Origin: Hydrolagus colliei
Taxonomy: Eukaryota
DNA: 64,000 nucleotides
Direction of reading: 5' to 3'
NCBI GenBank assembly: GCA_035084275.1
Contig: CM068755.1
Location: 7,750,001-7,814,000 of the forward strand
Shown here: in pieces, positions 1,611 to 62,596 of the stretch
Numbering within the stretch: position 1 is the first letter of the stretch
Layout of the letters: the number at the start of each line of letters is the position of its first letter
The notes under the pieces: model-generated
Database searches by the model: none
What the model saw: the letters and a program-made list of their open reading frames with translations, nothing else
Told to the model about the DNA's origin: nothing
Position numbers and translations under genes: made by a program

Positions 1611-1641
<31 letters not shown>

Positions 1642-1850: not shown

Positions 1851-1980
1851 GTCGGGAGCGGTTCAGGCCGGTGACAGGGTCGGGGCCGGTGCTGAGACCT
1901 CCCCGGAGGCACTCAAACAAACCACCCGAAAAAAATTAGGCGGGTCCGAGAACCGCCGCCGCCAGCCGCCGCTCGGCATC

Positions 1981-9435: not shown

Positions 9436-11082
9436 CTCCACATAAAAATATAAGTGTGAAAGGAGTGAAGTACACTCTAGAGAGGTTATACTGCACCACT
9501 CTGTCTCTTGTTGGGAACAAAAGTAGCTTATTACTATTGTAAATGTCGATTCCTATCTATCAGAATTACTCTAGATAACTGGGGAAATATTAAAATAAGT
9601 TAGTTCACATAGAATAACACGTGGGACCTTTTAATTTCCATTTCTGGTGAGTAATTGGAACATTTGTCTTCCTTCTGGAAACAACTCACTTTTACAGCAC
9701 CTCAATGTTGAACGATCTCAAAAGAGTTTGACTTTGACGCACTGTCAAGTGGAGAGACAGCTTTTTTTTTCCCCCAGGAAAAAGAGTCACAGCCTGTTTT
9801 GAGCAAAATAAAGTCCCGCAAACAGCCATGGATAAGTCAGAATCTCATCCCCACCCCCCGCCACCCTGTAAATAAAACATGTTGATATCTGTCCAGTCAG
9901 TCACAGGCATCAACCAAAAAAACTACAGAGAGAGCAAACGTATCCTTATCCAGGAGTGAGGTTAGTAACAGGTTGTAATGTACACGAGGGGATGATGCAT
10001 AGATTCCTAATACATGCAAACCACAGTCCCCATACACCAACTCACATAACGCCGGTCAACACGTAACATTTCCTGTACAGTATACACCGCAGGTCTTGGA
10101 ATGGACCATCCCCTCATCAATCCAAGTGTTTTAAGGATCAGTGATGTGGCGATCAGCAGGTGAGATCTCTTTCCCCAAACGTGTAACGTGCAGGTCGTAA
10201 AAAGACACGAATGATTTGCACCCCGGCCGGTTTTATTCTGTTAAAATCTTTGCTTCGTTCAGCAGAATAAATTCTAAGTCAGTGTCATTCAAAACCTGGA
10301 CTCGTTTTCTAAGTGTTAATACAAGATATCCGACTGTTCATTTACGCTCCGACCCTCGTGACCGAAAGATATTATTGCTCCTTTGATTTGATTAAATCTT
10401 AGAAACGTAGACATGTCTGCACGAAAAGGAAGGAGGACGCGTCCAGCCCGTGGTATGTGTGTGTGTGTGTGTGTGTGGTGTGTGTGTATGTGACCAGGAA
10501 TAGCGCCCATTGAGCATTGCATTTAAACACTGTGCGACTCTAATAGGAAGTGTGCAATCTAGTTTAACACTGAACTCACATTTGGAGCAGATAGAAATTG
10601 GACGAGGATAAGTTGGAAGTAGGTGCACCTGTCTGAGGTGATCTCCTGCTGAGATCTAAACATGGACTTGTTACAACTCGGGTGACATTGACGAGGGTAG
10701 GACCTACACTTTCACCAAACTCCAGTGTCCCCCAGATGGACGCAGTTTTATTTTGAAAATGTATTCCCATCGTATTGCCCTTCGAAGGTTTCTCCTGCAT
10801 TGCGAGATGGAGTGAGAAGGCTGTGTGAATGAAACTGAAGTTCGACTTGACTAGGATTATTTTCCTTCCCGGAGTCCTTCCCGATCAAGCCTCTGGGCAA
10901 CTCGCCGCACTCGCCGTGTTTCTGCCGCTTGGGACGTAACTCGTTTACTGCGTTAAACGCCCGAATTTGCGGTCACATCTCTAAATGAAGTTATTTGGGT
11001 TTGGTTCAAGAATGCGGGAAAAGGCCGACCAAAGCAGTGTCCGCCTCTGCACCTGTCACATTGCTGCAATTCACGAGATTCC

Positions 11083-11140
11083 CAGAGAGAGAGAGAGGGA
11101 GGGAGGGAGAGAGAGGGAGAGAGAGGGAGGGAGGGAGGGA
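11083..11140. repeat. (GA)n/(GGGA)n purine microsatellite in CART-A intron 2
   Basis: Directly visible. Confidence 0.9.
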
Positions 11141-11180
11141 AGAAAAAATGAATGAAAATATAATGAAAGGTTGTCATTAC

Positions 11181-11264
11181 CAGTGGGAGTTGTCCAAACT
11201 TCTTCTCCCAGGTAGGAAGCCTTTTACTCTGCAGTTTTTCGAGCACTTCTTGAAGAGCTCCCAG
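11181..11264 (-). CDS. CARTPT: CART prepropeptide paralog A, exon 2
   Basis: taacag|CTGGGA...CCACTG|gtaatg, 84 nt, translates LGALQEVLEKLQSKRLPTWEKKFGQLPL with both KR and KK sites. Confidence 0.96.
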
Positions 11265-11755
11265 CTGTTAACAAGAGAGGGAAATGGTTAGAATCCACTC
11301 TGCCCCCCACCCCCCACCCCCTCCAAACACTTAGACAAGACTTATCGTTTCGTGAACGACTCTCTAACAAAAAAGTCTGTCATTTTTGTCTGTCTATAAA
11401 CCGTATAAAAAAAACTTGTTTTGGAGTACTGCGCGTTTGTTTACCTGCGAAATTCTAAAGCAACACAAGTTCTCAACTAATCTAAGAGTATTTTCACCGA
11501 TACTGAGATTTGATCCGGGCGGGACATATCCTCTAAAGTGCCTCTGAATCTCTCACTTTCTGTGGTTTGCAAATCAACTGAAACCTTCAGAGAGAAGCAA
11601 ACTGGGTTAAATAAGACTCATTAAAAACGGCGACTCTAACCTCCCAACCAGCCTTTCAAATTGACTTTCTGTCAAGCAAAATCAACCCAAGACAGAGAGC
11701 TATATAGTAACGCGAGTTGATAGACAGGCAGCGACTGCAACATATATATACAGTA

Positions 11756-12367
11756 NNNNNNNNNNNNNNNNNNNNNNNNNNNNNNNNNNNNNNNNNNNNN
11801 NNNNNNNNNNNNNNNNNNNNNNNNNNNNNNNNNNNNNNNNNNNNNNNNNNNNNNNNNNNNNNNNNNNNNNNNNNNNNNNNNNNNNNNNNNNNNNNNNNNN
11901 NNNNNNNNNNNNNNNNNNNNNNNNNNNNNNNNNNNNNNNNNNNNNNNNNNNNNNNNNNNNNNNNNNNNNNNNNNNNNNNNNNNNNNNNNNNNNNNNNNNN
12001 NNNNNNNNNNNNNNNNNNNNNNNNNNNNNNNNNNNNNNNNNNNNNNNNNNNNNNNNNNNNNNNNNNNNNNNNNNNNNNNNNNNNNNNNNNNNNNNNNNNN
12101 NNNNNNNNNNNNNNNNNNNNNNNNNNNNNNNNNNNNNNNNNNNNNNNNNNNNNNNNNNNNNNNNNNNNNNNNNNNNNNNNNNNNNNNNNNNNNNNNNNNN
12201 NNNNNNNNNNNNNNNNNNNNNNNNNNNNNNNNNNNNNNNNNNNNNNNNNNNNNNNNNNNNNNNNNNNNNNNNNNNNNNNNNNNNNNNNNNNNNNNNNNNN
12301 NNNNNNNNNNNNNNNNNNNNNNNNNNNNNNNNNNNNNNNNNNNNNNNNNNNNNNNNNNNNNNNNNNN
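11756..12367. other. Assembly gap (612 N) within CART-A intron 1
   Basis: Run of N. Confidence 1.
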
Positions 12368-12390
12368 GAGAGGTGAAGGAAGAGACTGAC

Positions 12391-12534
12391 CAGTTCCTTT
12401 TCGCTGGAAAGAAACGTATCTTTAGGGTAAAAGTTTCTCAGAGATCTGGACTCGAGTTCAGAGACTTCAGCCCCGCAGGTCAGGGCCATGAGGCTGCACA
12501 CACTGATCAGCAGGAGTAGCCGAGTGCTGTCCAT
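12391..12534 (-). CDS. CARTPT: CART prepropeptide paralog A, exon 1 (signal peptide); full precursor 111 aa
   Basis: accATGg at 12534, MDSTRLLLLISVCSLMALTCGAEVSELESRSLRNFYPKDTFLSSEKEL|gtcagt. The symbol denotes the family; one-to-one orthology to mammalian CARTPT is not established. Confidence 0.94.
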
Positions 12535-38891: not shown

Positions 38892-38999
38892 TCAGATGCA
38901 TTGGAGGAGGAAGGAGTTACAGATAGTGCCTCTGGCACAATCGCACAGCTTGCCAATTCTTGGACCTTGCTTAATCGCACATCTGTCCCCAATATCACA
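38892..38999 (-). CDS. CART prepropeptide paralog B, exon 3
   Basis: atttttag|TGTGAT...ATC TGA translates [35 protein letters not shown], with six CART cysteines. Absent from the ORF track. Confidence 0.95.
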   Translation of the reverse strand, partial: CDIGDRCAIKQGPRIGKLCDCARGTICNSFLLQCI

Positions 39000-39402
39000 C
39001 TAAAAATCAATATAATCAAATATTATTCATTTGTAATAAGAGGAAAAGTAATATTCAGTCAGATGCCCCCTTTTAGTACGATTTTGTTTAAAAGCGCTAT
39101 TTGAGGGACAATATTAAATATAAATTTTCATTTATTCATATTTACTCATTTTACTAACTGACTTGAATGAGGGACCAAGGCTCATAGTGTCAGACACCAT
39201 CAAGGTTAGAAGGTATTGGAGAGAAGGTGAAACAGGTGCTAAGCTAGAAAATGCAGCGTGTAGACATTGTTTGAGAATAGGAGAATTGAGTTCTCCTATG
39301 AAACTCTTCATAGTTGAGTAGCCCACTTGCATTCTGTCCAGGCTGTCTAGGCACTCATGGAAACATACTCCCCCAACACGTTTAATTTAGCCTGGAACTG
39401 AC

Positions 39403-39480
39403 CTTAGGGATCTGCCCAGCTTTCTTCTCATAAGATATGGCATTGTGGAGTTTGCCCAGTATTTCTTCCACTGCTTCAAA
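39403..39480 (-). CDS. CART prepropeptide paralog B, exon 2
   Basis: tcgacag|TTTGAA...CCTAAG|gtcagt, 78 nt, translates FEAVEEILGKLHNAISYEKKAGQIPK. Confidence 0.94.
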
Positions 39481-40236
39481 CTGTCGAGAAATAAGTTTAA
39501 AAATAGATATATATATTTAAAAAATAACACTTGTAATTTCCAAACGGTTACATCCCATTATCAATGAGTAAAAAAAAACACGTTTCTCTCCATAACAGTA
39601 CTCAGTAATATGCTTAATATCCATTTTGAAAACATGTCAATCGTTTACATTGTATTTCTTATATGAATGAGGTGTCTCAGTGTTTGAGTTTCCTGGTCTC
39701 AATACACTCTTTTTGTATCAAAAGTTGCAGTCTATCCAAGTAAAATAATTTGTTCCTTCAAAGACCAAACTAATTCACACTACAGTATTATTTTAAATGT
39801 ATAAACAAAATGTTTCAATCGACGTCGGACTCCAAATGTCTATTATTTCCCAAACGTTATGTTCATGTCATCATAACTAAAGTTTCTACAATACGATCCA
39901 ATTGATGGAGTAGTTTACTGAACTGTAGTGAAATAAATACTAGTTTTTATATATATCTTTTAAAAGTTGGGAAAAGAACTTGTCATGAATACAACCTCCG
40001 AAACTCTTTGGATTGTTGTCCTCATTCGGACAAAACTTTCACACAGAAGGTAAAGCCAATTGAAATGGAATTACTTGGAAGAATTGTGTTGGGCAAAGAC
40101 ATTGGAAGAGAGGCAACCTAGAGAAAACTCCATACTATAATATGCATTAAAGGTAGACAGGCAATCGCCCTGTATTAGAATTTTTTTAAATAAAAAAAAA
40201 ACGAATGGAAGGAGGTAAACATGAAATTGAACTGAC

Positions 40237-40377
40237 CAGTTCCTTCTCAGCAGAAGCGTTGGGAGTTTGGGCCGGATAGTCTTCAGCTGGGCTAAGCTCT
40301 CTGGACGATTGCCCCTGGCAGAGGAACAAGAGCAAACTCACACAGAGGAGGCGCCCGAGCAAGCTGCAGCTATCCAT
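40237..40377 (-). CDS. CART prepropeptide paralog B, exon 1 (signal peptide); full precursor 108 aa
   Basis: accATGg, MDSCSLLGRLLCVSLLLFLCQGQSSRELSPAEDYPAQTPNASAEKEL|gtcagt. Same EKEL|gtcagt junction as paralog A. Confidence 0.93.
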
Positions 40378-40386
40378 GGTGCTGAA
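40366..40386 (-). promoter_or_regulatory. RE1/NRSE (REST site) overlapping the CART-B start codon
   Basis: TTCAGCACCATGGATAGCTGC, 18/21 to consensus, with one mismatch in the GGACAG half-site. Confidence 0.7.
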
Positions 40387-40439
40387 CCTACACCCTCTCG
40401 AAGGAGAATCTTGTGATCTGCAAAGGGAAGAAAGGTGTC

Positions 40440-40512
40440 CTTATATAGGCACATTAGACCTGCCTGGCCAACAGCTCCGGGAGCTAATGAATATGGACTG
40501 CAGTGTGATTGG
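40440..40512 (-). promoter_or_regulatory. CART-B core promoter: TATA box and CCAAT box
   Basis: TATATAAG at 40440-40447 and CCAAT at 40508-40512, both on the minus strand. Confidence 0.7.
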
Positions 40513-45639: not shown

Positions 45640-46100
45640 TCATAGATAGATTCATAGAATTTTACGGCACAAAAGGAGGCCATTCGGCTCATCTAGTCTG
45701 TGCCGGCTCTTTGAAAAGAGCGATTCAATCCCACTGCCCTGCCCGCTCCCCATAGCCTAATAGACCTGTTCTCCCTAAATAAAGATCTAATTCCCTTTTA
45801 AAAGTTGTTATCGAATCAGCCTCCACCACCTTTTCAGGCAATGCATTCCAGATTCGAACAACTCGCTGAGTGAAAAAATTTCTCCTCAGCTCCCCTCTAC
45901 TTCGCCTTGAAACTATTTTAAATCTGTGACCACGAGTCACAGATTCGCCCACGAGTGGAAATAGTTTTTCTCTATTTACCCTGTCGAAACCCCTCATGAT
46001 CTTATAAACCTCTATTAGGTCTCCCCTCAATCTTCTCTGCTCCAGAGAGAATAACCCTAGCCTATCTAGCCTCTCCTCATAGCTGAAGTCCCTCAATCCT
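45640..46100 (-). mobile_element. CR1 LINE 3' end (ORF2 C-terminus plus 3' UTR), 5'-truncated, frame intact
   Basis: SYEERLDRLGLFSLEQRRLRGDLIEVYKIM...TRGH...RRNFFTQRVVRIWNALP...FKRELD, followed by a 3' UTR ending in ATTCTATG-like repeats. Older CR1 pieces at about 8720-9030, 13870-14110, 18060-18370, 20390-20570, 32430-32800, 42060-42320, 42890-43060, 55360-55535 and 63380-63800. Confidence 0.93.
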
Positions 46101-46317
46101 GTTGGAGATGTATCGATGTGAAAAGTGATATAGAATTGCAAGTTCTTTCTATCTTCATAATATCCATTAGATCATACATTGCGACTTCCATTCTGTGTGT
46201 ATTGATGCAAAAGAATAAATCTTACGTTTGATATAATGCCTTAGCACATCATTGAGACATCTCAAAAAGGTTCAAAGTATATACTGTAAAGTGAATATAC
46301 CTTGCACTGTATCTTAG

Positions 46318-46648: not shown

Positions 46649-47349
46649 TTTTGTGGATGAAACGCAATAGAACAGTCTGCACAAGGCAATGCGCAACGAA
46701 ATACAATATGCATTTGATAGAACATTTAGAATTCATTTTTAAGTGGATTGTCATATGGTTTCCAAATTGAAATATGCACAAATAAAATGGAAGAGGTTTA
46801 TATTTAGTGAGAATGCTCTAGACATTCCCTCGAATTAATCTGGCTGGGCAAACAAGTATTCGTGTAGTTTAACATGCACCAAGCAGCTAAATTAACCATT
46901 GTGTAGGTGAATAAAGTCCTAGAAAATGAAATGTAATATTTCCCTTTGTATTCACTGCTGACAGCAGGTGATTCTGTAATCCCTGTCATGATTGATAAAT
47001 TAGACAATTTGGATTCTTCCGTAGGCATGAGATTGCACATGATTAATCCAACTTGCAAATATTAACTTCCCAATATCAGATATCTGAGTAAATTGTACTA
47101 TTCTCAAGAATTATTCTCAGCAGCCTATAAAATGTGGCTTGTTCAAGGCAGTGCATTTGAAATCAGAACACTCGTCTCAATTAAAAAGCAGCTTGATGCT
47201 GTGATTGGAAGCAAATAGGGTGATTATTCTGCGATAAACTCAGGTGAGTTGAAGGATCTTCCTCATTCTAACTTGTGATTTTGTGAAATGAAGACAATCT
47301 AAAGTTTCTTTGATTAATGTTGATGCACTGCACAAAAGAAAGTATCCTA

Positions 47350-47850
47350 ATAATAATAATAATACATTCTTGCATTTAGTTCAGCGCCTTTCACATCGGG
47401 AGGATATCCCCAAATGCTTCAAAGGAATTGTGAAATGGAGTGACTGTGTATTTCTGAGCAACTGTAGAAGGCAATTTTCGCATTGCAGTGACCCACAAAC
47501 AACCATGAAATGAACGACCAATTTTATTTGGGGGGGATTAATGGCCATAACACAGGGAGAAACTCCCTTCTCTTTTTGAACAGTATCGTGGGATCTTGAA
47601 CGTCCACCTGAACAGGCAGAAGGGACCTTGATTTTAACGTGTATTTGAAAAGAGAACGGAGTTTCTCCTGCTGTCCTGGTCAACAATCTCCCAAATAAAA
47701 TTGGTCATTCACATAATGGTTGGGACATTGCTGTGTGCAAATTGGCAGCCGCATTCACTCACGCAATAATCATTCCGCTTTACAGTGTATCCTGTAAAGC
47801 TCTTTGAGACGGCTTGACTACATGAAAGGTGCTGTATCAAATGTAAGGAA
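47350..47850. mobile_element. Head-to-head pair of Deu-domain SINE fragments
   Basis: Minus copy at about 47350-47645 (aggtggacgttcaagatcccacgatactgttcaaaaagagaagggagtttctccc) and plus copy at about 47645-47850. A similar arrangement occurs at about 55535-55850. Confidence 0.7.
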
Positions 47851-48451
47851 TTTTATGTTTAATTCTTCCTTATTAATATCCTTATTATTAGCATTAAAGC
47901 CCTCCATGTCCTCGCCCCACCCTACTTCTGCAACCTCTTCACCCCTTACCAACCTGCCCACCCCCTCCGCTCAGCAGGCTCTGGCCTGCTCCATGATCCC
48001 CTGCCCCACCATTGGCGGTCGAGCCTTCAGCAAACCGCTCCCAACCTCTGGAATTCCATTCCCGCAGTCCCTCCACCTCGCCCCCTCCCTAGCCGCCTTC
48101 AAGTCCCGCCTCAAGACCCTCTTTGATGGTACCATCGGTCACCCCTCACTCCCCTTGTTTCTTTCTCCCCTCCCCGATCCCGACCCCAGCTCGGGACTGA
48201 AACACTGACTGGCCAGCGCCGTGGCACATCATCCCGATGTAAAAGGCACTAAACAAGTGTAATTTTGTGGCTGTGGTCAGAGACAGCTTAATTGGAACAT
48301 TAATTTCATTAATTAGTGTCACAAGACACTACATCAAATACAAACAGTTAATGCAGCTCAACAGGTCCCCTGTTTCCGATTGCCGTAGTAACAGTGCCAC
48401 CACGTGGCTATGGAGAAGCACTGCAAGCAAACTGAACATTAGGATTACTGA

Positions 48452-48614
48452 AACAAAAACAGACGTTGCTGGGGAAACTCAGCAGGTCAGGCAGCATCCA
48501 TGGAGAAAGGAAAGCGAGTCAACGTTTCGGGTCTACAACCCTTCGACCCGAAACGTTGACTCTTTTTCCTTTCTCCATGGATGCTGAGTTTCCCCAGCAA
48601 CTTCTGTTTTTGTT
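48452..48614. repeat. About 160-bp imperfect palindrome (Penelope-like/MITE-like)
   Basis: Left arm aacaaaaacaga...gagtcaacgtttcgggtc and right arm gacccgaaacgttgactc...tctgtttttgtt. Confidence 0.85.
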
Positions 48615-48616
48615 AA

Positions 48617-49100
48617 TGATTGACAGGGAGTAGGGCGGAGTACAGACAGTAATTGACAGGGGGTGGGGCGGAGCCAGACAGTGATTGACAGGGAGTGGGG
48701 CGGAGCCAGACAGTGATTGACAGGGAGTGGGGCGGAGGCCAGACAGTGATTGACAGGGAGTGGGGCGGAGGCCAGACAGTGATTGACAGGGAGTGGGGCG
48801 GAGGCCAGACAGTGATTGACAGGGAGTGGGGCGGAGGCCAGACAGTGATTGACAGGGAGTGGGGCGGAGGCCGGGCTGTGATTGACAGGGAGTGAGGCGG
48901 AGGCCAGACAGTGATTGACAGGGAGTGGGGCGGAGGCCAGACAGTGATTGACAGGGAGTGGGGCGGAGGCCGGGCTGTGATTGACAGGGAGTGGGGCGGA
49001 GGCCGGGCTGTGATTGACAGGGAGTGGGGCGGAGGCCAAATATTGATTGACAGTGAGTGGGGCGGAGTACAGACAATGATTGCTAGGGAGTGGGCGGGGT
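48617..49100 (+). repeat. 33-bp minisatellite, about 15 copies, in the TTC23 promoter
   Basis: Unit GTGATTGACAGGGAGTGGGGCGGAGGCCAGACA, with variants ending GCCGGGCT. Confidence 0.97.
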
Positions 49101-49108
49101 TTGTGGCG

Positions 49109-49140
49109 GTTGCCAGGGGAGCGGCTCGGGCGCCATGTTG
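49109..49140 (+). promoter_or_regulatory. RFX X-box-like site and YY1 motif at the TTC23 promoter
   Basis: GTTGCCAGGGGAGC (49109-49122) has a perfect GTTGCC half-site; CGCCATGTTG at 49131-49140. Confidence 0.55.
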
Positions 49141-49186
49141 TCGCTCACTGGACCGGCTGAGCCGTTAGAGGGTCAGGTTTAAAAAT

Positions 49187-49275
49187 ATGAGTAGCCCCGT
49201 GTTTAGCGGCCCCCCGCAGGAGGTTTGTTCTGAAGGGTCTCAGAGACTCTTGTCGCCAGGAGCAGACGAGAGGGG
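49187..49275 (+). CDS. TTC23: Tetratricopeptide repeat protein 23, probable coding exon 1
   Basis: ATG 49187, MSSPVFSGPPQEVCSEGSQRLLSPGADER, strong donor GG|gtgagt. Phase 2 matches the next exon. The N-terminus itself is not recognisably conserved. Confidence 0.6.
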
Positions 49276-49726
49276 GTGAGTTCCTCCCTGACGCTGATTC
49301 CTTGTTTAAGTCTCACTCCTCCCTCGAAGAAATGGCTTTTTAATTGTCGAGAGAGAGAGAGAGAGAGAGAGAGGCACAATAAACAAAACCCCCTCCACCA
49401 TCAGCCAGGACTCAGGCAGCAGCCAGGCCTGCAAATGGCCTCAGCTTCCCTGGGAGGTGGCGGGGGGGGGGAACAGAGAGAATAACAGTGTGTGTGTCCC
49501 CAGTGTGTAAGTAACACAGATGTGATGTGAGGGCAATGTTAGGGTGGGCTGTGGTAGCCACGATCATTTACTGCTGACACTCACTTTCTGGGCTTCACAC
49601 ACGAATAATGCCTTCATAATACAGTACAGTTTATACAGTGCATTTTGTTTAATGCGGGGAGGACATGATTTCCCAGCACGGAAGTGCTTCCTTCACACCT
49701 GGCTAGACACCCAAACTGGGACAAGC

Positions 49727-50020
49727 TTAATAATAATCCTTGCATTTGATACAGCGCTTTTCATGTCTTCTAGACATCTCAAAGCACGTCAAGGAATATA
49801 CTATAAAGTGAATTGACTGTGTATTTGTGTGTGAAACGCAGTAGCCAATTGCACACAGCTGTAACCCACAAACAGTCATGGATTGAAATGGCCTTTTTTT
49901 TCTTGACGGATTATTATTATCAGTAAGTAAGGAAACTTGCCCAAGGTTTCGTTCCTGCCTGGAATCGAACCCAGGTCTTTTGCTTGTAAGGTGGATGCTG
50001 TAACCACTGAACTGCAGGTC
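49727..50020 (-). mobile_element. tRNA-derived SINE in TTC23 intron 1
   Basis: B box GGTTCGATTCC on the minus strand; family body and tail. Confidence 0.82.
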
Positions 50021-50298
50021 TCCACATACACATGACAAAGGAAATGTTCTTTGCCCAATGGAGGCAAGGTCAATGCCAGTCTACTTTTTATTGATGATAC
50101 GTTAAGGGTGCAAGAGAGTCCATTTCATAACTTGCTGAGCACAAGCAGTCATTGTTGTAGTCATCATGAAGGTAGAGAGACCTGTGCTATATGGATTGTA
50201 ATCCATCACGTTGCTGTGATACTTGCTTGTGAAAAAACATATTTAGTTGTGTGATTCACACAACATTTCAACGGTGTGTCTTTATTCCCACCATCCAG

Positions 50299-50473
50299 AT
50301 TTGGCAGCAATAGCAGCAGATTCAGTTTAGGAGGATCTTGCACTCCCAACAGAAATGCTCAATCCAGGCGGAAACTCAGGCATGGCTTGGAGGAAGCAGC
50401 AATAATGGTGCTGCCCGAGGATAAGCTTGAACAAGCTGAACAGAGAGCCAAAATGCACAAAGCCAATCAAGAG
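50299..50473 (+). CDS. TTC23: TTC23 exon 2
   Basis: catccag|A...GAG|gtaagc; ends MVLPEDKLEQAEQRAKMHKANQE. Confidence 0.8.
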
Positions 50474-50809
50474 GTAAGCGCTAGTGGATGAACGTATCAC
50501 AAGATATAACTGCTGATTGGTTTTAGGGAATGGCAAAGTTTGTGACATATTGTTATTCTCCTATCTGAAGAATCCTGAATTTAAATTCCAACGGTTTTTG
50601 CTCTATAATTTATTTTATTGAGTTGTTGGCTGTTCATATTGGACGAAATATATAATAATATATAAATATAATATATAAATATAATATATATAATAATAAT
50701 AAATTGGGATCACAAATCCCTCAATCTCCTCTTGCTTAGCCTGGCCATTGTACCTGGCTTTGAATCTGCTTGTGGCAAACACATCCATAATTGTATTCCT
50801 TTGCTTCAG

Positions 50810-50933
50810 GGAGCGATTGCTATACAAGAACTGGTGCGTTGTGTATCTCTGGCCAGGATTACCTATGGTGATTTTCATTGGAAGATGGCACAAGCGCATG
50901 CTAACCTAGCAGAAGGCTACCTGGAACTCAAAG
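50810..50933 (+). CDS. TTC23: TTC23 exon 3
   Basis: [42 protein letters not shown], compare recalled human [35 protein letters not shown]; ag/gtaagt flanks. Confidence 0.93.
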
Positions 50934-51424
50934 GTAAGTAAAAAGAGGATAGAATAAAAATGGAATTGTACGATTCCATATCCAAGCCTTCAAAGCATCA
51001 ATTATTTGTAACTTTTAGTTAATAAAAAAAGAATTTTCTCCCAGACAGTATGTCACTACTGCAGATGCTAAACCCACAGGTTATAATTTGATGCCTGTGT
51101 CCCACGCACATTTATCTGACATGGTTAGAACAAACCTGAGTCACTTTTGATTGCTTTACTAAATGGAGCTCTTCACAGTGGTATAGATGAAGAAAGCCTG
51201 CAATTAATTATTAGGGGAAATTGTGCCACGATCTAATTGAGCAAATGTGACTGAGACAATGGTGTAGGATATACAAGTCATTTTTTTAAAATAAAAAGAT
51301 GCAGTGTGAAATATTAAATGTCCTTTTCCGTAAACATATTTCTTGAAGAAAAACATTAGTGGAGGCATGTTTGGTCAAATAGGCTTTTTCTGAACTATAA
51401 TATTCCTTCCTTCTGTGTTTCTAG

Positions 51425-51581
51425 GAATGGTATTGCAGGCGAAACAGCACGGAGAGAAGGCTAAAGACATCATGTATACCAATACTGAACTCCCAATGTC
51501 AGAGGAAGAGAGAGAGGACATCCTAAGATGTTTAATCAACATATTTCACACACTTGGTAGAGCACTAATGGGCCTTCAGAA
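51425..51581 (+). CDS. TTC23: TTC23 exon 4
   Basis: MVLQAKQHGEKAKDIM...IFHTLGRALMGLQ; ends at the U12 donor ATATCCTTT. Confidence 0.92.
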
Positions 51582-52083
51582 ATATCCTTTTATTTGTATT
51601 TCTAAATTTATCTTTAGAATGTGAGAAACAACCTTGCTGGAGTTCTACAGATCAATTTACTGATTTACTGTTCTTTTCCAGGCTGCAATGTTGTGCGTCC
51701 CATACAAGTGTAATTTTGTGGTTGTTAGCATTGATGGTCTGCTCTTGTTCAGTTCATCGCAGTGAGGATGGAGCCTGATGCATGTGCAAACCACTCATGT
51801 TTAAGAGTATCCTGTTCCAGCTACTATGTTCGCATGAAGCCAATTTTTGTTCTGAAAAATGCAGTATCTTTCCCCAGTCAAGATGGTCAGGAAACATATT
51901 GTCCACTTGCTTATTCCCAGAGAACACAGTGAAAAGGCATTGTGGACCACAAAGTATTCATTTGAATATAATACAAAATGCAATACAAAACTACATTTGT
52001 ATAGAGCCTTTGGACCCAAGCGGGGTCCAAATCCCTTTCATTCTTTCTTCCTGTGTTATTTTATTCCTTAACGTTTTTTTCAC
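51582..52083 (+). other. U12-type (minor spliceosome) AT-AC intron
   Basis: 5' ATATCCTTT, branch site TTCCTTAAC at 52064-52072, 3' CAC. Splicing keeps the frame (AA|T = Asn, giving GLQ-N-LKEAEQNL). Confidence 0.93.
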
Positions 52084-52209
52084 TCTGAAAGAGGCTGAAC
52101 AAAACTTACGAAAGTCAGAAAAGATTGCAAATAAGCTTCGACACGAGGCAGGAGTGACCCAAGAAGAGATGAATGAGGTGGATGCCAAAATTTCTTTGTC
52201 TTTTGGAAG
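52084..52209 (+). CDS. TTC23: TTC23 exon 5
   Basis: LKEAEQNLRKSEKIANKL...EVDAKISLSFG, donor AG|gtaaat. Confidence 0.9.
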
Positions 52210-54973
52210 GTAAATTTTCACTTTTTTTAAAAAAAAGTCTTTGTTTAAATGAGCCAGGAGTCAGCCATAAATCTTTAACAGATTTTCTAAAATAAGACAT
52301 TTTTAAATATTTAACTTTGAGAAGGGGACATCCTTAATTCTGTTGTATTGAAACTTTCCTAAAGTTAATGAATATCCCTGAGGGTTTTGCATCATTCGGT
52401 TACTGTGGTGGGTGCTTGCCGCAGGATGTCAATTGTAATTATAGGTGATACTTGCTCATGAACAGCCAGAGGGTGCCGTTACCCAGCTTCAGGTGGTTGG
52501 TTACTTGTTTCCACAAGGGAGCGATGCAGCTCAGTGTTTTGTATCCCGGCAACCAGAGCTGCAAACGTTTCGCCAGATGGTAATGACATTTACTGCAAAC
52601 TGTGATGTTAGGAAAGCCAGTGATAGAGGAAAGGAATGCTTTGCTTTCTACTGCATCACTGGCAATAGTTAAATACATCCGATCTGAAATATCCAAGAGA
52701 CAAGTCCCCTTTCACGTCAGATTAAATTACATATGATTGCAGGGGAATTTGTAAAATTACCTCATAGCTTCAATGGAAACTCACTGTAGCAGTCTAAAAT
52801 TTACACTAAAAGGTACCCATCAGGAGTTAAGCAATAGATAATTCCTCAAATAACTTCTAAAGATTCAAACCAACAGTGTCACAGCTTCAAGAGCTATTCA
52901 TAGTCACAGCGTGAAAAGCCTTGCTTGGCCTGTGTGGGTGGTAAGAAGTCTTGGTCCTTTTGTAAACTTTCACTCATGTTGTGTGAGAACAGTCTATAAG
53001 TATTCACTGGGCCTTTCAGTGCAGATAAATTCCTTTATTATGTGCTAATGGAAAATGAGATAGTTAAAAAATGCAGATTAAAAACCTATAAAAAAAACTA
53101 GGGAAGATAAGAGCACTGCTTGTAGATCTGTTTAGTAAGAACATCAATCTCGTGACATGTTTTAACCCATCCCTTTACTACAGAGTTTCAGAAAACAAGT
53201 CCCCATTTGTAATGATAAAATTACCAGACAAAGCTGGTGAGTATATCTAGGAAACAGCCTAAATACTGATAGGTGTGTCGGTAAATGTACTGAGCAGTAT
53301 GGATCAGGAAAATGATGCAGTATAGACAAGAACACTATTTAATCTCTTTGCAGTTTATAAACAACCATTACAGATAGTATTAATATACAGTATCTGGTTA
53401 TATATGCAAGTAAGAAGTGTGAGCAAAAATGTTGGAATGTAATACTCGGTAGGGTGGGACCTTTATGCTATTGACCTAGGTTAATCCACTCCCCAGTCCT
53501 CAAGGTGGCACTCGGAGTGGCTTCATTCTGATGCATTAGGGGGAGAAAAAATCACCCAGGTTCCCAATATCCAGTGACCTGCTGAGATGCGGATGTATAG
53601 ATATCTGAATACACAAATGTGATGGCCCAGCTGTTAAATATTTTGTTGACACTTACTTTGAAGGCACACAAATTAAGAATGTTCATGGAACAATATCCTA
53701 GTAGAAGGAATCAGTAGAGAGGTGAGAGTACTTATTTATCAATGTAATAAGTCATCTGCTATCCTGCTGGATAGCCTGCATATGGTTATTTTGACTTGGC
53801 CCTTTTCAAACCGATGATCACATACAAGGAAAGGATGATGTCATCCAGTTTGTACTGCTCATTAACCATTGACATTCACTGAAGCAAAACAGAAGCTCCA
53901 TTCATTGCATCCAAGTTCTGGAGGCACCTCCCTCACACTCGCAAGCAAAACCCTCAATATAGAACCAGCATTCTCTTCCCCCGACTCTATTCTTTGGAGA
54001 TTTCATTATTTTCTGAGACGGAAAAATCAGGAACAACTGTGGGTGGAAGGAGAAAAGGAAGGAAAGTATGACGATTCTGCTGCTGGACAAAAGGTCTCTT
54101 GTTCTGCTAGAAACGGTGAAGTTCTGAATTTCAGGAGGGACAAGGGAGCCTAACAACATAAGCATCAGGATGTTCCTTATCCAAACAATAATTACTTTTC
54201 ACCCAACCACGTTATTTTAACATTATGTTATTTTTGAGTCTTTAATTTCCTGTTTCCATTCTTCTCTGCATATTTTTTTCCATGTATTTTGATATTTATG
54301 AATTTGGCTCTGCACCCAAATGCAATTTATTTTCCACTTGGACAAAAGTACATTCTGTAATCAGTTCCTGTCAAGTTCAAGCTCCTGTTGTAATTCTCTT
54401 TCAGTCAGTACGTGTGTGTGGTGGGTATACATTTGTACGTACACACACATGACTTGGCATGTTTTCATCATTGTGATTGTCTACTTCTTTCGTACTCATG
54501 CCTTACCTTTTGAGGAAATCTCTTTGCATCGAGTTGAATAGTACTACTTTTGATAGTAAGCGAAAGTTATCAAACTTCCAGACGTTTATCAAGAAAGGCT
54601 CTTTTGCCTAGCTCTTCTGATGTTGTAGTTGGATGAGGTCCCAGATTGAGTTATCTGATTTCAGATAGGACAGCCTTTGGGGTGTTGCGATTGGTCTTGG
54701 CACCTCTGGGTTAGAATGGAGTAATTTGATTTGAATTCCGCTCCTTAATTGCTTTGCACGGAGATCATCCAAACTCTTGCTGGAAACAACTGCAAACATC
54801 TGTTGAGGACATGATTGGAGCTTAACTGTGACACTTCCTTGAGATTGAATAACCTAACACTCAAAAAAAGCACTGTCAGAATTTTGTTTCTCTATAAACA
54901 ATAAGAATTTGCAAAGGGATCGGATTGATATTATATGTGACAGTGCAATATGATTTTTGCTGTGAATTTCCAG

Positions 54974-55151
54974 GTTGTACATGAAGTTAAAAAAGCCAGC
55001 CCAAGCTGTGGAGTGGTACAAGAAATTGCTTCAACTGGTGAAATTCAGCAAGGGTGAAAACGGCATGGAGTGTGTGAGTGTCTATGAGGACCTGGCAGCT
55101 GCAGAGCAAGCCAGAGAGGCGCAGGACATGAACTTCCACTACTTACGACTG
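54974..55151 (+). CDS. TTC23: TTC23 exon 6
   Basis: ttccag|G TTG TAC...CTG|gtaaga; includes SKGENGMECVSVYEDLAAAEQA. Confidence 0.9.
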
Positions 55152-56920
55152 GTAAGAGCCTCGAATAAAGAGAGAGTCACCTGTAGGTGCAAAGAGCTGG
55201 GGGAAAATCTTATACAAGTTTGCCTATGTACTATACGTGTACATGTATATGCACAAACACATTGTAACAGGTGCTCTGAGACGCCGGCATGGAGGGTGCT
55301 ATATAAATGCAAGTTGTTGTAACTGAAATAAGATTATGTTAAGATTAAGGGTTTAGACTAATAGAACATAGAAATTCACAGTAAAAAAGGTGTTCCTTTT
55401 AGTGTTCCATTGTGTTTGTGATGGATTTTTAAAGAGCAAAACATTCACTCCCTTAACTTATCTTTCCCCTATAATTGTCGCCTTTTTAGGTATTTATCTA
55501 GTTCCCCGTTGAAAGCTAATATTGATTCTGCCTCAACTACAACAACAAACTTACACTTGTATAGCGCCTTTCATGTCAGAAGGATGTCCCAAGGTGCTGG
55601 GAAGGAGCAATCCTGCTCCAGGCAGTTCATCCGATCTTTCAGATGAGACGTTTAAACCATCTCCCTGTTCAGGTGGAAATTGGAGATCCCATGGCACTGT
55701 TCAAAAAGAGAAGGGAGTTTCTCCTGGTGTCTTGACCAATAAATCCCTGGGTATTTTGTGGGCGCAAACTGACTGCTGCCTTTCACCCACAAAATACTCA
55801 GTCAATCCACTTTATAGTATGTCCCCTGAAGTTCTTTGAAATGTCTCGACAACGAGGCAGGAAAAGGGACTTCCACAATCACTCCTTCATTCAAATAGTC
55901 TGTGTAGGTTCACACTTCGAGAATTCCTCCCACTCCTTGAATGAACACCCTTGCTGCAGTGCAGTGGTAGTTAAAAGAGCAGAAGGTATTTTAAAGCTAC
56001 ACTGAAGTAGATGTTGCACTGATTTAACTGAGAGTGGGCATTTAACTAGTATTCTTTGTTCTCAGTGTGACTTATTTTATGCAAAGATTAATCTTGTGCT
56101 TTAATCTAGCTATTGTCTTTCTGTAAAATCTACGTTGTTTCCAGCCACATTTTTTTAAAAGTCATTTGACCTTTTTAAAACATTTCCAGAAATGCCCAGC
56201 TATTTCTTCCTTACATGGGCAAGTTAGCAGAATACAGAAATCAATCGTAAATCCTTCACCCTCAAAGTGTTGTGGGTTGTGGTCTCAATATAAACTTGAG
56301 GAACTAAGTACTTGAAAATCCCAAGTAAGTTTCCCATGATGCCTCTGAAAGCATATTTAAACAAAAAAAACTGCTCTTATGTTGCAAGACTAAATAAAAT
56401 GAATGCTGCTGCCTTTCTTTCCAGTCCCCCCTCCCCCCCAACAGATCATCCACTGAAATGCATTAAAGTGCATTAAATATTTTGATTCAATTATTGTAAT
56501 AAATAAACCTAAGCAATCACTGAAATGTTGAATATATGGAACTCCGCATTTTTTAAACAATACATTCCCAAACCATGTATAGTTGGCAGGTGAGAGCAGG
56601 ATTTGCCTGCGATGCCTCTGGCATGTGCTCTCACAAAGAACGTTTGATGTTGGTGGTGTGAGGTAATGTGTTTTCACAATGTTTTAGTGTTTGTTATTCT
56701 TTATTCAGCCATTGTGCTTTTCCATTCGCATTGTGTAAAAAAAAATAAAGCCCTTATATCATTGCCTGTTGCTCTAACTTCTGGGGCTTTCTATCAGACC
56801 TCCTGTTGCAAAACTGTCCTAAAATAACCTTGCCTGTTTCCTGCCGAGTATCCTGCCTTGAAGAGTTGCCAGTCTTGGTCTAATACTTGTGATATTGATC
56901 TGATTCGCCTTGTTTCACAG

Positions 56921-57026
56921 GCTCATTCCACAGTACTGAGCAATGCTCCCTCTGGACAGGAGGTGGGACAAATAGCTCATACTCTGGCAGAGGCCTATGC
57001 TGCGTCCAGTAGGCCTGAGCACCACG
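56921..57026 (+). CDS. TTC23: TTC23 exon 7
   Basis: ttcacag|AHSTVLSNAPSGQEVGQIAHTLAEAYAASSRPEHH, donor G|gtatgt. Confidence 0.9.
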
Positions 57027-57140
57027 GTATGTCTACTGAACCTTTCCAACATTGTTTTCATTTGTCTGATTACAGAGTATTAAAAAGACTGCCTACCATG
57101 ACTTCTCTTTTTAACAGTGAAGCAAAAAAAAAAGCATGTG

Positions 57141-57486
57141 CAGTAAAAGCTTTTGTTATCCGGCACCCTCGGGACCCGATCGGTGCCGGTTAATCAAATA
57201 TGCCAGCTATTCGAGCAGCAAGTTGCCAAAAATCCCACACTAAAAATTTAACTTATTTCAAAACATACCATATTAATAATAGACTAAATAATAACAGAAT
57301 ATTGTATGGATACTTGCCAATAAAGCATTCCAGCACACTTGGTAAAATCGCGTTCGGTAAGTTTAATAAGTGCACATGCATGGCTCCAGAATGAGTTCCA
57401 GGTGCTGGAATGGTGAATTGTATTGGGAGATACGGGTTGGTTGAGTGTTCCGGTTGGTTGGGTGCCAGATAACCAAGCTTTTACTG
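57141..57486. mobile_element. Non-autonomous DNA transposon (Tc1/mariner-pogo-type MITE)
   Basis: About 27-bp terminal inverted repeats CAGTAAAAGCTTTTGTTATCCGGCACCC / GGGTGCCAGATAACCAAGCTTTTACTG. TA on the right flank, TG on the left. Confidence 0.8.
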
Positions 57487-57784
57487 TAATTGTTTTTCAC
57501 CTAAAAAATGCAGATTTAAAAGAGTAACTCTGGTGTATGTTCTACGGTTTAATGTTCAGTGGACACATTTCTTAGACACCATGTATTACACAGCACACAA
57601 TGGCCTCAACACATATGAACACTAAATAGATAGCTTCACTGAGATCATTAGGATGTTACTTGGTGTTACACTGCTCTACAATAACCTATGAATGCCTGAT
57701 ATGAGAGCACGAGCAGTATGCAATGTTCTAAATGTGGAGGAAAACACATTCCCTTGGTTGGGGTATCCGCGCTACTATTTTTTT

Positions 57785-58050
57785 ATGTGACTGATATCAG
57801 CTGAGGTGGTTGTAAGAATGCTTCAATTGTCCTCAACACCCTGGACTAGAAAAAATCAGCCAAGATTTCTGTTCCTGGTAACTATCCACTGTCCTCTCCT
57901 GGAAAATGCATTTTGGACATTGCATGTCAACGAAATTGGACTTGTCTGCGATGCCTCCCATGGTTGAATAATCTTCTAACACTCAGTTGTTGAATTCATC
58001 CAAGAACAACCTCTTGAGCGAGGCACTGGAGGGGTGGTCAGTTCCTGTGG
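57785..58050 (+). mobile_element. Old unclassified interspersed repeat (SINE-like)
   Basis: Shares motifs (aaatcagccaagat...ctatcca...gatgcctcc...gttgaata) with about 4790-5000(+), 53480-53700(+) and 23780-24130(-). Confidence 0.55.
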
Positions 58051-58117
58051 AATGTATTTTCTTAAAACCAGAAGGACTTATCACAAAGAATGTCTGTGTT
58101 GATTGTAAATCCCTTAG

Positions 58118-58245
58118 ATTTGGCTGAGAGGTACTACAAGGAGAGTCTGCAATCTTATCAAACAACAGTGGGAGCAGATCACTCAATGTATCTTTCAGTC
58201 CAGGATAATTACTGTCGCTTCCTGGTCTTGCACAAGAAGTATCCG
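58118..58245 (+). CDS. TTC23: TTC23 exon 8
   Basis: cccttag|(D)LAERYYKESLQ...YLSVQDNYCRFLVLHKKYP|gtaaga. Confidence 0.9.
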
Positions 58246-59020
58246 GTAAGAGCTCTTAGTCTGATCATGGAAATCAATTAAAGTTTGTATTGAGTTATTC
58301 ATCATAGGAAGAGACAACAGGTCTAGATAATTTCTATATTTGAATTTGTTGATAGTATGAGCATGGTTTAGTTCATATCCAATGTATGACTGATCTCTCC
58401 TTTCGAAGAGAAACCTATTTTTCATCTTTCTTTGTCAGGGAGAAAGAAAGCTTCACTTACAAACTTCATTCTGTGGAGCACTTTATGAGGAATGCCTATT
58501 AAGACAACCCAAATTAAAGAATGATCTTATCCAGCCCATCCAAGCAAAGACTTAATTACACTGACCTCATAAGGATGAAAGGACAGCATTCCACCCAACT
58601 ATTTACAGAGAAATTATTTTCAATCTTTCTGTGTACTGTTAAACAGTACAGTAGCACAAAAATTCAAGTAAATCCCTATAACAACAACAAAATTACATTT
58701 ATGAAGCGTTTTTCACGTTGGAAGGACAACCCCAGGTGCTGAACAGTCAGGGGTCTGTAATGGTAGAACACCAACAAAATTACATTTGTAGAGCATTTGT
58801 ATATGTATTTGCAAGAGTATATTTATGTGCATCTGACTGTGTATGCATGTACACATTCCTATAAGTGAATGTACATATACATAGATACATATAAAACAGT
58901 ATATATGATATATTAGAGCACAGAACTGCAGGATTTTTCACTCCCAGCATGAAAGGCTCTATAAGAATGTTATTTGTTGTTATTAATGCTGACAGAAGAA
59001 ATGACCTGTGTTTCTTGCAG

Positions 59021-59170
59021 GATGCTTTAAAAATGCTGCAGGAATCTCTCCCGGCCAAGCTGTCTGCCTTTGGAGATTTCAGTTCTGAGGTGGCAGACAC
59101 ATACGAACTGTTAGGAGGAATGGAATTAGCAGAAGGGCATCAAAGAACAGCATACAACCAGTTTAAAACT
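59021..59170 (+). CDS. TTC23: TTC23 exon 9
   Basis: DALKMLQESLPAKLSAFGDFSSEVADTYELLGGMELAEG...KT|gtgagt, compare recalled human AFGDFSPEVAETYRLLGG. Confidence 0.93.
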
Positions 59171-61628
59171 GTGAGTGGTCAAGGCTTAGAAAATGTTTAC
59201 ATTTATTGATGTCAATGAAACAGCCCTGAGCAAATCTTAATCCTAATTGTATTCCTTGCATTTGATAAAGTGCCTTTCATATCAGGAGGGCACCTCAAAG
59301 CGCTTTACTGCGTGTTTTGTGTATATGAGGCAAGTGAGCAAAAATTAGCTCTATTTTTCTTCTTCATACTTTCTCTGGAAAAGGTTGTGGTTTGTGTAAG
59401 TGTTATCATTTGGATAATATTTATCAAACTCAATGAACAAGATATTTATGGTGCTAGTCCTTAATATACTGGGCAGTGAGTCATTGTAAATCTGGTATAA
59501 TAATCTGGGTAATATCCTAGTCCTTTCAAAAGCAGTTTTCCATCGCTCACTTTTCCAGTTTGCTTTCGGTCCAGCAATTCTACCACTGTCTTCAATCTAC
59601 CACATGTTGCTTTGAGGTTAAGTGAATTCTTTGATAATTTTAAGTGATTACGAATAAAGGGCAATCCTTTTTCCGTACTAGTTTGCTAAACATGTACCGT
59701 GGAAGATGAGACTTGGGATCAGTCACTGGCACGTAACCCAGTGTGATCTGATATCCTGTTCTGTTTATGAAGATGCCACTCCCAAGACAGCAGCTGCAGT
59801 GAGAGTAATATTTACCTTCTGGTAACCTGAGTAGGTCCTACAGATGAATGATCCAAAGTTTGATTACAATTGTGTTCAATAATAACCCCTTATTCCTAAA
59901 ATGGCCTCATGTAAATGATATCCCGTGGGTGACTATGGCTTTATGGCAGTTTCTTCCACAGGTGTCCAAGATCCATAACTCATGAGATGCAGTGGGTGAG
60001 TCATGGTCCAAGTCTCTATTGGAGCAGTCAATGTAATTATGTGATTGCTCAACACTTGAGGCAAATGTCAGTGGGAGGAAAGGCAGCCAATATTTATCTC
60101 TTTTTGTTGCTAAGCTTCATATCACTCCATCCAGTCACTCCATCCATCAGCTAGCCAAGAACCATCTGAAACATGACCAAATGACTGAAAGTTGGTGGTC
60201 TACTTGTGCTACTGATCATCTTTAATCTCACTTTCTCTTTATTTTATTTACATAGAATGTAGAACAAGTTACTATCAAAATATGAATGTTGACCCTAAAA
60301 ATCCAAAGTATGATTTACTCTTTGGAATTGAAAGGGATAAACATGTATTGGAGCAAATTTTCAAATTACAATATCTTCCTCTGCTATTTTGTATTCTATA
60401 AAAGCTGCCGAAGAACCTGCCAAATCCTATATATAGAACCTTTGGCAGAGCAAAGTGCAATCTACAGTTTCTCAGTTCCCGATTGGAGTGAGTAATGGCA
60501 ATGTCCTAGACATTAGAGAGACTGTTGGGTATCCATTTTTTTGGTTAAATTTGAGCATTAATATCATTATATTGCAGGAAGCAAAATAATACATAAGAAT
60601 GAAGAAGGCAACAAAATAATAATCCTTGCATTTGATATAGCACTTTATAATGCCGTTGAGTGGTCTCAAAGTGCTTCACAGGTGTTGCTTTGAGGTGTAG
60701 TGACCTTGTACTTGTAATCCAACTCAGCAACCAATTTGCGCACTGCAATGTCCTATTAACAGCCATGAAATGAATGACCAATTTGTATCATTCCTATTTC
60801 TGCTAAATGTGATAATTCTCTCTATTGTTGAAATCAGTTAAACTCTGAACTGTTTCTTCCCATCATTTGGTCTGTGGCATCCATCTCTGTACGAGCTCCA
60901 TCTTTGCACTAGTTTCACTTCTATCTCAGTACTAGCTCCACCTCCAGTATGCAGAAATGTTCTACATTTTCAGTGTCCAAATTGCTGTCCTTATCGTCCA
61001 ACTAAATCCATCTCTATGTCTGAGTCAGGATTTTCTTTTATGAAACCTCTCGAATGAATACCTCACCACTGAGCAATGTTAAACCAAACAACTCCCTGAG
61101 AACAAGTTATGGCTATGTCATCTGTCTACAATAAGCAGCAAACACAATTTGGATGATGCAGATTTTCTGTTTTTATTTTGTTGTGCTTGTGCACTGAAAA
61201 AAGACTGCATTTACTCAGCCCATTGCATGATACAAAATAGCACTGCCACAAAGTACTGCAGTCTGAACAGATAAAACACTAAATGAGGAGATTGCATCCT
61301 CCAAAGTGTCTTAACTCCCCCAAAGCCTATCTGTCTGCAGCCGGGATCCCAACTGTCCAATTACATTTTTTTTATATTGCCAAAATATAACATTTAATTA
61401 AAATACAATGATTTTAATTGTTGGCGAGTTTCTCTTCAACCTCCCATTCACCCTGCCCCCTACCCCACCCCACCCCCCACCCCCATCTGGAATCCCATTG
61501 CATTGGTCTGTCGCCATTGAATTTCAATGGCAACATTTAAAAACAATGCATTCTGTTTTTATTCAAAGATGAAAACACGAGCAACAATGCTGGAATCTAA
61601 CGGGATGTTTTATCTCTTTGTTTGGCAG

Positions 61629-61711
61629 TGCCTGGACATTCAGACACTTCTCTATGGTTCAATGCACAAAAAGACCAGAGAGACCCAACAGATGGTTCAA
61701 CTCTTATCCAA
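61629..61711 (+). CDS. TTC23: TTC23 exon 10
   Basis: tggcag|CLDIQTLLYGSMHKKTRETQQMVQLLS, donor AA|gtaagt. Confidence 0.92.
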
Positions 61712-62481
61712 GTAAGTAATGCCTCAGTGACCAAAAGATCAATGCTTTGAGCTGGCTAAAGCTCTCTGAAACAGACCAGGCTGCTGCTTAACTCTATCAG
61801 TACCATTTACTTTTATTCTTATACTGAAATAAAACTTGGAAAAGGATGTGAAAATGGCAGTACGAAGATTGAGCACTACTAATTTTCTAGCATTGATTAT
61901 CATGAATTATACTGTTGTGTTGTATGTACATCCCTCTTTTTTCCATTTTTTCCAACAGACAATTCTAGTCAGCTAATCCACTGTTAAATTCTTGCTTCTC
62001 CTTCCCTGGCCCCATTCAGATTCATGCAATGAAATGTTAGGAATATGTGACCAAACAAGAAGCATTCCAAACTTGTGACAAAAACAGGCTTGCTACAGAA
62101 TCGGAGAAGATGACATGGACATAAAAAATAGTTGGACAAACCAAATTTGTAAGACTCTGTCAATTGTGGACAGTTGATTATATTTATATACTGAATTAAA
62201 TTCATCCCATTCCCCCTGTTCATTTCTGTATGGTCTGAAACTTCATTTTCATTCCTAAAGTCACATACCATGGTTGAATGTAGATATTTGTTGATCTTAC
62301 CTTTTCAAGCTTGATTACATTCTAATTAGCTTTGCTGGTAACAAAACCTCTTCACTGTTGCTGACTGGGCTCTTGTAATAAATATAAATCTTATGTTTTT
62401 AACAAACATTAGACTCTGAACCTCATATCTCACCTTTTAATGAATGTAATTCATTAAAAAATATTATTTGTTTTCAACTAG

Positions 62482-62596
62482 GTCTCCAGAAATAACTGTG
62501 AGAAGTGGGAGAGTGGCAGCCAATCATTTAAAGCCGAGACGTCCATTTTGTTCAGTGTTCGGAGGAATCACAAATAATTTCAATTACACATCTTGA
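62482..62596 (+). CDS. TTC23: TTC23 terminal exon 11 (reconstructed CDS 1431 nt, 476 aa)
   Basis: caactag|G then SPEITVRSGRVAANHLKPRRPFCSVFGGITNNFNYTS*. Phase matches exon 10; AATAAA at 62835-62840. Confidence 0.75.

Follow-up and report, generated by a model that had tools for sequence, protein, structure and literature searches.

A tandem array of PBX-PREP decamer and GC-box modules in the likely proximal promoter of TTC23 in Hydrolagus colliei

Introduction

Shortly before the start of a protein-coding gene in the genome of Hydrolagus colliei, a 33-bp unit with a PBX-PREP decamer and a GC box is repeated head-to-tail about 14 times. The locus raises the question whether a promoter module has been amplified here, whether the number of its copies matters for the gene, or whether a G-rich repeat contains the two motifs incidentally. 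The window, i.e., the whole stretch of DNA which was analyzed, comprises 64 kb (GCA_035084275.1, contig CM068755.1, positions 7,750,001 to 7,814,000, forward strand), and all coordinates refer to it.

Promoter VNTRs reportedly exist at XRCC5 and TPMT. Promoter repeats which alter the number of Sp1 sites are described in the literature, among them a 61-bp repeat of the reduced folate carrier and a TCC repeat of EGFR; human repeats of this type are reported to change expression, and tandem repeats can exclude nucleosomes (PMC3899988). Common minisatellite VNTRs are reported to be enriched at start sites (PMC8096271), and regulatory modules are described as arising by local sequence duplication (PMC3188502). 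Among the papers listed by a literature search of mainly open journals, there was neither a decamer-bearing tandem array nor a study of this locus.

Structure of the Tandem Array

At 48617-49094, Tandem Repeats Finder identified a repeat with a period of 33, 14.5 copies, 92% matches and a score of 774, which is the sole long-period multi-copy array among its 12 rows for the 64-kb window. With these values it is a minisatellite in the sense of head-to-tail units longer than 10 bp, a definition taken from PMC3899988. Splitting on the decamer gave the following features:

48617..49076, plus strand: tandem array with 14 full units of 32-33 bp (Tandem Repeats Finder and splitting on the decamer)
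49077..49100, plus strand: degenerate 15th unit, its decamer broken by two changes and its GC-box core kept

The full units have a length of 33 bp in 12 of 14 cases and of 32 bp in the other two, and they consist of the decamer (10 bp), a spacer (5 bp), the GC box (9 bp) and a linker (8-9 bp). The original prediction of a tandem array of decamer and GC box is confirmed by this layout, although the gap between the two motifs, which it had put at 6 bp, measures 5 bp. By exact word search, the decamer TGATTGACAG was found in 13 and the GC box GGGGCGGAG in 12 of the 15 units, and neither word occurs outside the array in the whole window. The composite pattern with up to three mismatches has 14 matches in the 64 kb, every one inside the array, against a chance expectation of 0.09. 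No other copy of the 33-bp unit was found in the window, the top similarity being 21/33 in low-complexity purine runs. The mean pairwise identity of the units is 91%, and the G-skew of the array is 0.54.

Location Upstream of TTC23

The gene downstream of the array had been predicted to be TTC23, and the alignments bear this out. The exon at 50810-50935, which is exon 3, matched two proteins, both TTC23 models of Callorhinchus milii, with 95% identity, and 11 exons align with the C. milii protein, the main tblastn matches having 51-100% identity including intron overhang. A search with the C. milii protein gave 24 matches, of which 20 carry the name TTC23, three are called TTC23-like and one is unnamed; shark and ray TTC23 orthologues are 48-66% identical to this protein. 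TTC23L was considered as identity instead and rejected, as the closest named relatives favor TTC23, a judgment based on names. The features which define the 5′ end, together with that of a second gene used for comparison, are:

49187..62590, plus strand: TTC23 coding span with 11 exons, from tblastn of C. milii TTC23
49187..49275, plus strand: first coding exon of TTC23, with the donor GTGAGT at 49276 and in frame with exon 2 (50299-50473)
49131..49139, plus strand: YY1-like motif CGCCATNTT, containing an upstream ATG at 49135
1600-2010, minus strand: CpG-rich 5′ end of TUBGCP4, whose first exon (1850-1773) matches gamma-tubulin complex component 4

The N-terminus encoded by the first exon lines up with other chondrichthyan TTC23 starts. 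Pyrimidine-tract scores do not exceed 0.6 for any of the 70 AGs in 48600-49187, compared to 0.6-0.87 at the internal acceptors of TTC23, and since there is no strong splice acceptor upstream of 49187, the exon 49187-49275 is probably the first one. The first exon predicted after the array was in this way found as the first coding exon at 49187.

The array spans the region from 570 to 87 bp before the TTC23 ATG at 49187. The CpG observed/expected ratio amounts to 0.58 in the region 48617-49290, which has a GC content of 62%, to 0.54 in the array alone, to 0.76 at the TUBGCP4 5′ end and to 0.35 in the window; the array lies below 0.6, the usual threshold for a CpG island. No TATA-like word was found in 48290-49200. 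Upstream, repeats seen elsewhere in the window cover 831 of the 1115 bp of 47500-48614, and therefore the array and the approximately 90 bp after it make up most of the unique proximal sequence. Based on the distance of 87 bp to a conserved ATG, the lack of a strong upstream acceptor, the CpG enrichment and the YY1-like motif, the array likely occupies the proximal promoter of TTC23, as far as this can be read from sequence, and the predicted promoter location is supported at this strength.

The sequence CGCCATNTT occurs only twice in the window, at 49131 and 1999, each time at a CpG-rich gene 5′ end. We take it to be a YY1 motif, and with this label the YY1 motif predicted downstream of the array is present. 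An upstream open frame of 15 codons (49135-49182) starts within it and stops 5 bp before the TTC23 ATG, and a second one of 30 codons (49076-49168) also ends before this ATG; both could damp translation if transcripts start upstream of them. The array as a coding or RNA gene was rejected, as the open frames across it are plain repeat translations and Rfam gave nine matches at E up to 1 over 47000-50500, none of which lies in the array or reaches the gathering score.

The Decamer and GC-Box Module

The decamer TGATTGACAG corresponds to the DECA motif of Pbx-Prep dimers, described as the main Prep/Pbx motif (PMC6023610), in agreement with the predicted PBX-PREP identity. Sp/KLF and CCAAT motifs are reported near Prep peaks or DECA (PMC6023610; 10.1101/720102), and PREP binding is described as located mainly at promoters (10.64898/2026.02.16.706105). 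In 300,000 shuffled units the exact decamer arose three times (1e-5) and a GC-box-like word in 7.5%, figures which have to be read with the array being one amplification event, not 14 independent observations, and with the motif having been picked after looking. The decamer is the informative part of the unit.

These frequencies bear on the explanation that the array is a generic G-rich minisatellite, or belongs to a dispersed family of satellite or element origin, with incidental motif matches, the true promoter being formed by the approximately 90 bp from the array to the ATG and by upstream unique sequence. The rarity of the exact 10-bp decamer by chance argues against it, while the GC-box-like word, arising in 7.5% of shuffled units, and the G-skew of 0.54 are what such a repeat could offer. 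The G-rich part presumably resembles the classical vertebrate minisatellite core. Moreover, unit 1 lies 2 bp from the end of a dispersed palindromic element, and linker variants which differ by three bases without intermediates are as import from related arrays would give; but the second copy of the palindrome has no array, the unit has no other copy in 64 kb, with 21/33 as the best outside similarity, and the array is placed at a gene 5′ end. A generic satellite is held to be rather unlikely.

The well-studied composite of this decamer consists of DECA and a CCAAT box 11 bp away, which are bridged by Sp2 (10.64898/2026.02.16.706105), and natural promoters such as that of mouse Sp2 are reported to hold more than one of these composites (10.64898/2026.02.16.706105; PMC6023610; 10.1101/720102). 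The TTC23 array has the identical decamer and the promoter setting in common with the composite of PBX-PREP, NF-Y and Sp2, but it contains no CCAAT on either strand. The spacing rule places CCAAT at a distance of 10-12 bp from the decamer; 11 bp beyond the decamer's GAC, this slot reads CGGAG and is occupied by the GC box. The array was consequently not assigned to the DECA-CCAAT (TALE/NF-Y/Sp2) class, and bridging by NF-Y and Sp2 as described cannot apply, since CCAAT is absent.

Cooperation of KLF4 with TALE factors (KLF4-MEIS2-PBX1) is said to occur. In AlphaFold models, Sp1 keeps an SP-box contact with the TALE dimer (10.64898/2026.02.16.706105), and this modeled contact is a plausible way for the two sites of a unit to cooperate. 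A more far-reaching reading builds on it: the units would be NF-Y-independent DECA-GC composites, in which zinc fingers of the Sp1/Sp3 type would sit on the GC box, in the slot normally held by CCAAT, with the SP-box touching PBX-PREP; 14 such modules would form a selected, length-polymorphic dosage promoter of TTC23, and promoter-directed recombination in chimaeras may amplify modules genome-wide. As a joint statement, this reading is distinctly improbable.

Variation Among the Units

Compared to the consensus drawn from the 14 full units, the array contains 15 distinct variants, with one in the decamer (10 columns), two in the spacer (5 columns), two in the GC box (9 columns) and ten in the linker (9 columns). 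The decamer is hence the least variable part and the linker the least conserved one. The predicted concentration of variation in the linker holds for distinct variants (10 of 15 in the linker, p = 0.0017; 12 of 15 outside both motifs, p = 0.0035), but it loses significance if each variant haplotype is counted once as an event (5 of 10, p = 0.11, and 7 of 10, p = 0.075, respectively), because the outcome depends on how the bases of a multi-base linker change were altered, one by one or at once. A single template switch could account for several linker changes lying close together.

The sole decamer variant among the full units retains the TGACAG half-site. Scored against what we take to be the Sp consensus, the GC boxes of all 14 full units reach 9-10 of 10, both variants having 9. 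The CpG of the GC box is intact in 14 of 14 full units; in the dispersed repeats of the window, transitions affect 52% of aligned CpG sites compared to 29% of GpC sites, and the probability of zero CpG losses across the array ranges from 0.66 to below 0.01, varying with the assumed rate, so that the CpG retention is only suggestive as a hint of hypomethylation. In the linker, CAGAC is found in ten units, AG(A/C)CAGACA in two and GGCCG in three variant units, all of which we assume to be SMAD-type words. Words of this type arise in 8% of linker shuffles, or in 16% including GC-type SMAD words, and with the linker being the least conserved part, a SMAD site was set aside as a weak lead.

Units 4-7 and 10 equal the consensus, with units 4-7 being identical over 132 bp; one three-base variant of the linker recurs in units 8, 11 and 12, and units 1 and 14, at the two ends, begin their linkers alike. 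From the identical interior units and the variant common to units 8, 11 and 12 we infer an expansion from the inside, of which this is the usual pattern. In the claim that a core-promoter module had been amplified, it is the amplification of one module which the sequence fits.

The stretch of identical units 4-7 also leads to the consideration that assembly may have collapsed or expanded identical units and thereby contributed to the copy number. The window does include a scaffold gap of 612 Ns (11756-12367), but it lies 36 kb from the array, which itself has several distinct variants in irregular order, diverged ends and unique flanks. An assembly error could shift the unit count by a few, not create the array, and a substantial assembly contribution is hardly probable at all.

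Helical Phase and DNA Structure

A period of 33 bp corresponds to 3.14 turns at 10.5 bp per turn, leaving a drift of 51 degrees per unit, with the opposite face reached after 3.5 units, and for 10.5-10.2 bp per turn the drift amounts to 51-85 degrees. The 14 decamers are spread round the helix (resultant length 0.17, calculated for 10.5 bp per turn) and would be in phase only at 11 bp per turn. These values contradict the expectation that the sites lie on roughly one face of the DNA.

A potential for G-quadruplexes had also been predicted, but the array contains no match to the canonical motif of four G3 tracts with loops of 1-7. Non-canonical motifs are present, namely 11 two-tetrad motifs and three three-tetrad motifs with loops up to 12, the latter at variant units. 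G4Hunter gave a mean of 0.95 and a maximum of 1.64 (25-nt window), with 30% of the windows in the array at 1.2 or above, against 1.5% in the whole 64 kb, and a consensus stretch of three units was folded by ViennaRNA without a quadruplex.

If the array mattered mainly as a structure, by G-quadruplexes, R-loops or nucleosome exclusion, its factor sites would be of little importance. The G4Hunter values and the non-canonical motifs are compatible with this, and nucleosome exclusion is described as possible for tandem repeats (PMC3899988), but neither the canonical motif search nor the fold yields a quadruplex, and the least variation, one variant in 10 columns, is seen in the decamer, a sequence that is not rich in G. 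We consider a mainly structural role very improbable.

Flanking Elements

The array is flanked by the following elements:

48452..48614, no strand assigned: palindromic dispersed element of 163 bp (DNA fold -76 kcal/mol, z -21)
48379..48406, plus strand: X-box-like site with one mismatch, accompanied by a CACGTG E-box; both lie in 48290-48450, a short piece of unique sequence preceding the palindrome
49109..49122, plus strand: X-box-like site by consensus match, with one perfect half and two mismatches overall

The palindrome, a feature absent from the original prediction, ends 2 bp before the first decamer, and seven of the nine sub-gathering Rfam matches fall on it. It presumably resembles the Penelope-derived hairpin elements of cartilaginous fishes. 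A partial second copy is located at 7057-7138 without an adjoining array, and on this basis the array as cargo of the element was set aside. Each arm of the palindrome at 48452 has an X-box-like word with one mismatch.

With the RFX X-box consensus GTNRCC-N0-3-RGYAAC (PMC5752003), sites with one mismatch occur 24 times and sites with two mismatches 222 times in the window, which places the site at 49109, predicted as an RFX-like box after the array, at chance level when taken by itself. The upstream X-box-like site and the E-box are possibly an older distal part of the promoter, and the palindrome, by separating them from the array, may have split this older promoter. The adjacent palindrome and promoter-directed recombination are possible drivers of array instability. 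In C. milii, PRDM9 is described as lacking the SSXRD domain and as undetected in testis RNA, and recombination near start sites is reported for species in which PRDM9 does not work (PMC5519329).

Neighboring Genes

The minus-strand gene transcribed divergently from TTC23 is a CART gene:

38900..40447 (lower bound approximate), minus strand: CART gene (CART-B), with TATA at 40447 and ATG at 40377
39480-39403, minus strand: exon 2 of CART-B; its cysteine-rich exon starts from 38999

The divergent CART-B which had been placed about 8 kb away does exist, its start lying 8,240 bp from the array, but a link between the two is not supported, as CART-B has its own TATA box. Dispersed repeats make up at least 28% of the sequence in between. 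In bidirectional promoters, head-to-head starts lie within approximately 1 kb. A promoter common to TTC23 and CART-B was rejected on account of the distance and of the TATA box at 40447.

A second CART gene (8400-12534, minus strand) has the same orientation at about 28 kb from CART-B, with a cysteine-rich exon from 8498, and the 612-N gap sits in its first intron. The TUBGCP4 promoter, being ordinary, compact and without a decamer array, is a useful contrast to that of TTC23 within the same window; we take the sequences at 1982 and 1999 to be a ZNF143-like site and a YY1-like motif, respectively. Further observations on the minus strand are an intronless open frame of 596 codons with BTB-BACK-Kelch structure (2692-4482), which we take to resemble calicin, and an open frame of 148 codons without a Pfam match (45725-46171), presumably the terminal part of a LINE protein of the CR1 type. 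Short repeats dispersed over the window form several families with AAT or CAA tails and 3-11 copies each, some of them at 47500-48290 and in TTC23 intron 1.

Discussion

The array is probably a promoter minisatellite which arose by local duplication of a decamer plus GC-box module and whose copies probably serve as redundant factor sites, a reading that rests on sequence analysis. A single 33-bp segment of the proximal TTC23 promoter would already have held the PBX-PREP decamer and the GC box, and slippage or unequal exchange would have multiplied it into about 14 head-to-tail copies, with the interior units presumably still turning over. Some of the copies would be bound, at the decamer by PBX-PREP dimers and at the GC box by Sp/KLF factors, probably as redundant sites, and these factors would hold the TATA-less, CpG-rich promoter open, while transcription would start near the 3′ end of the array, around the YY1-like motif. 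Weak purifying selection may keep the motifs cleaner than the linker, and extra copies would most likely be tolerated and saturating rather than form a selected dial.

Multimerised activator sites often saturate. This counts against the explanation that the unit number varies between individuals or species under selection and sets the TTC23 dosage and thereby the ciliary Hedgehog output. In mouse cells, on which the Hedgehog link of TTC23 rests, the protein is described as a component of the EvC zone which takes part in Hedgehog signaling, but in the same report the Ttc23 knockout leads only to a moderate reduction of a Hedgehog reporter and to no defect in cilium assembly (10.1101/156059), making the gene a poor candidate for selection on fine differences in dosage. 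The purity of the interior units suggests instability, and the expression effects of human promoter repeats with Sp1 sites (PMC3899988) would fit a dial, whereas the array was read from one haplotype and the helical phasing argument fails. A selected copy-number dial is unlikely in our estimation.

Seen as a promoter minisatellite, the array combines features by which a functional promoter VNTR is recognized in sequence, namely a putative proximal promoter position and a transcription factor motif in the unit. Like the known promoter VNTRs with Sp1 sites, including the VNTR upstream of CSTB, it consists of GC-rich tandem repeats immediately before a gene, each with an Sp-type site, but its units add the exact TALE decamer at a constant distance, and the proximal 480 bp or so are made up entirely of about 14 copies. 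Polymorphism and expression effects are established for those VNTRs, whereas the TTC23 array is known here from the sequence of one haplotype. The class of promoter minisatellites is known; the composite unit of decamer and GC box is unusual.

Synthetic reporter promoters are likewise multimerised, with many head-to-tail modules for two factors ahead of the start site. The TTC23 array shares the head-to-tail order with them, but it is natural and, judged by its period, out of helical phase. Modules formed by local duplication are described with a common origin of neighboring sites on a scale below 50 bp, as in the array, but they diverge towards new sites (PMC3188502), whereas the array units stay 91% identical.

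The TTC23 locus is a clean natural case of about 14-fold amplification of a promoter module for two factors, in a vertebrate lineage that has seldom been studied. The array is a ready allelic series for the question whether decamer and GC box cooperate at 5 bp without NF-Y and for the output as a function of module number. If neither a dial nor recurrence holds, it would be an ordinary promoter minisatellite. If it is length-polymorphic and functional, it would represent a heritable dial on a ciliary Hedgehog component, and if such arrays recur at many chimaera promoters, the birth of promoter minisatellites would be tied to promoter-directed recombination.
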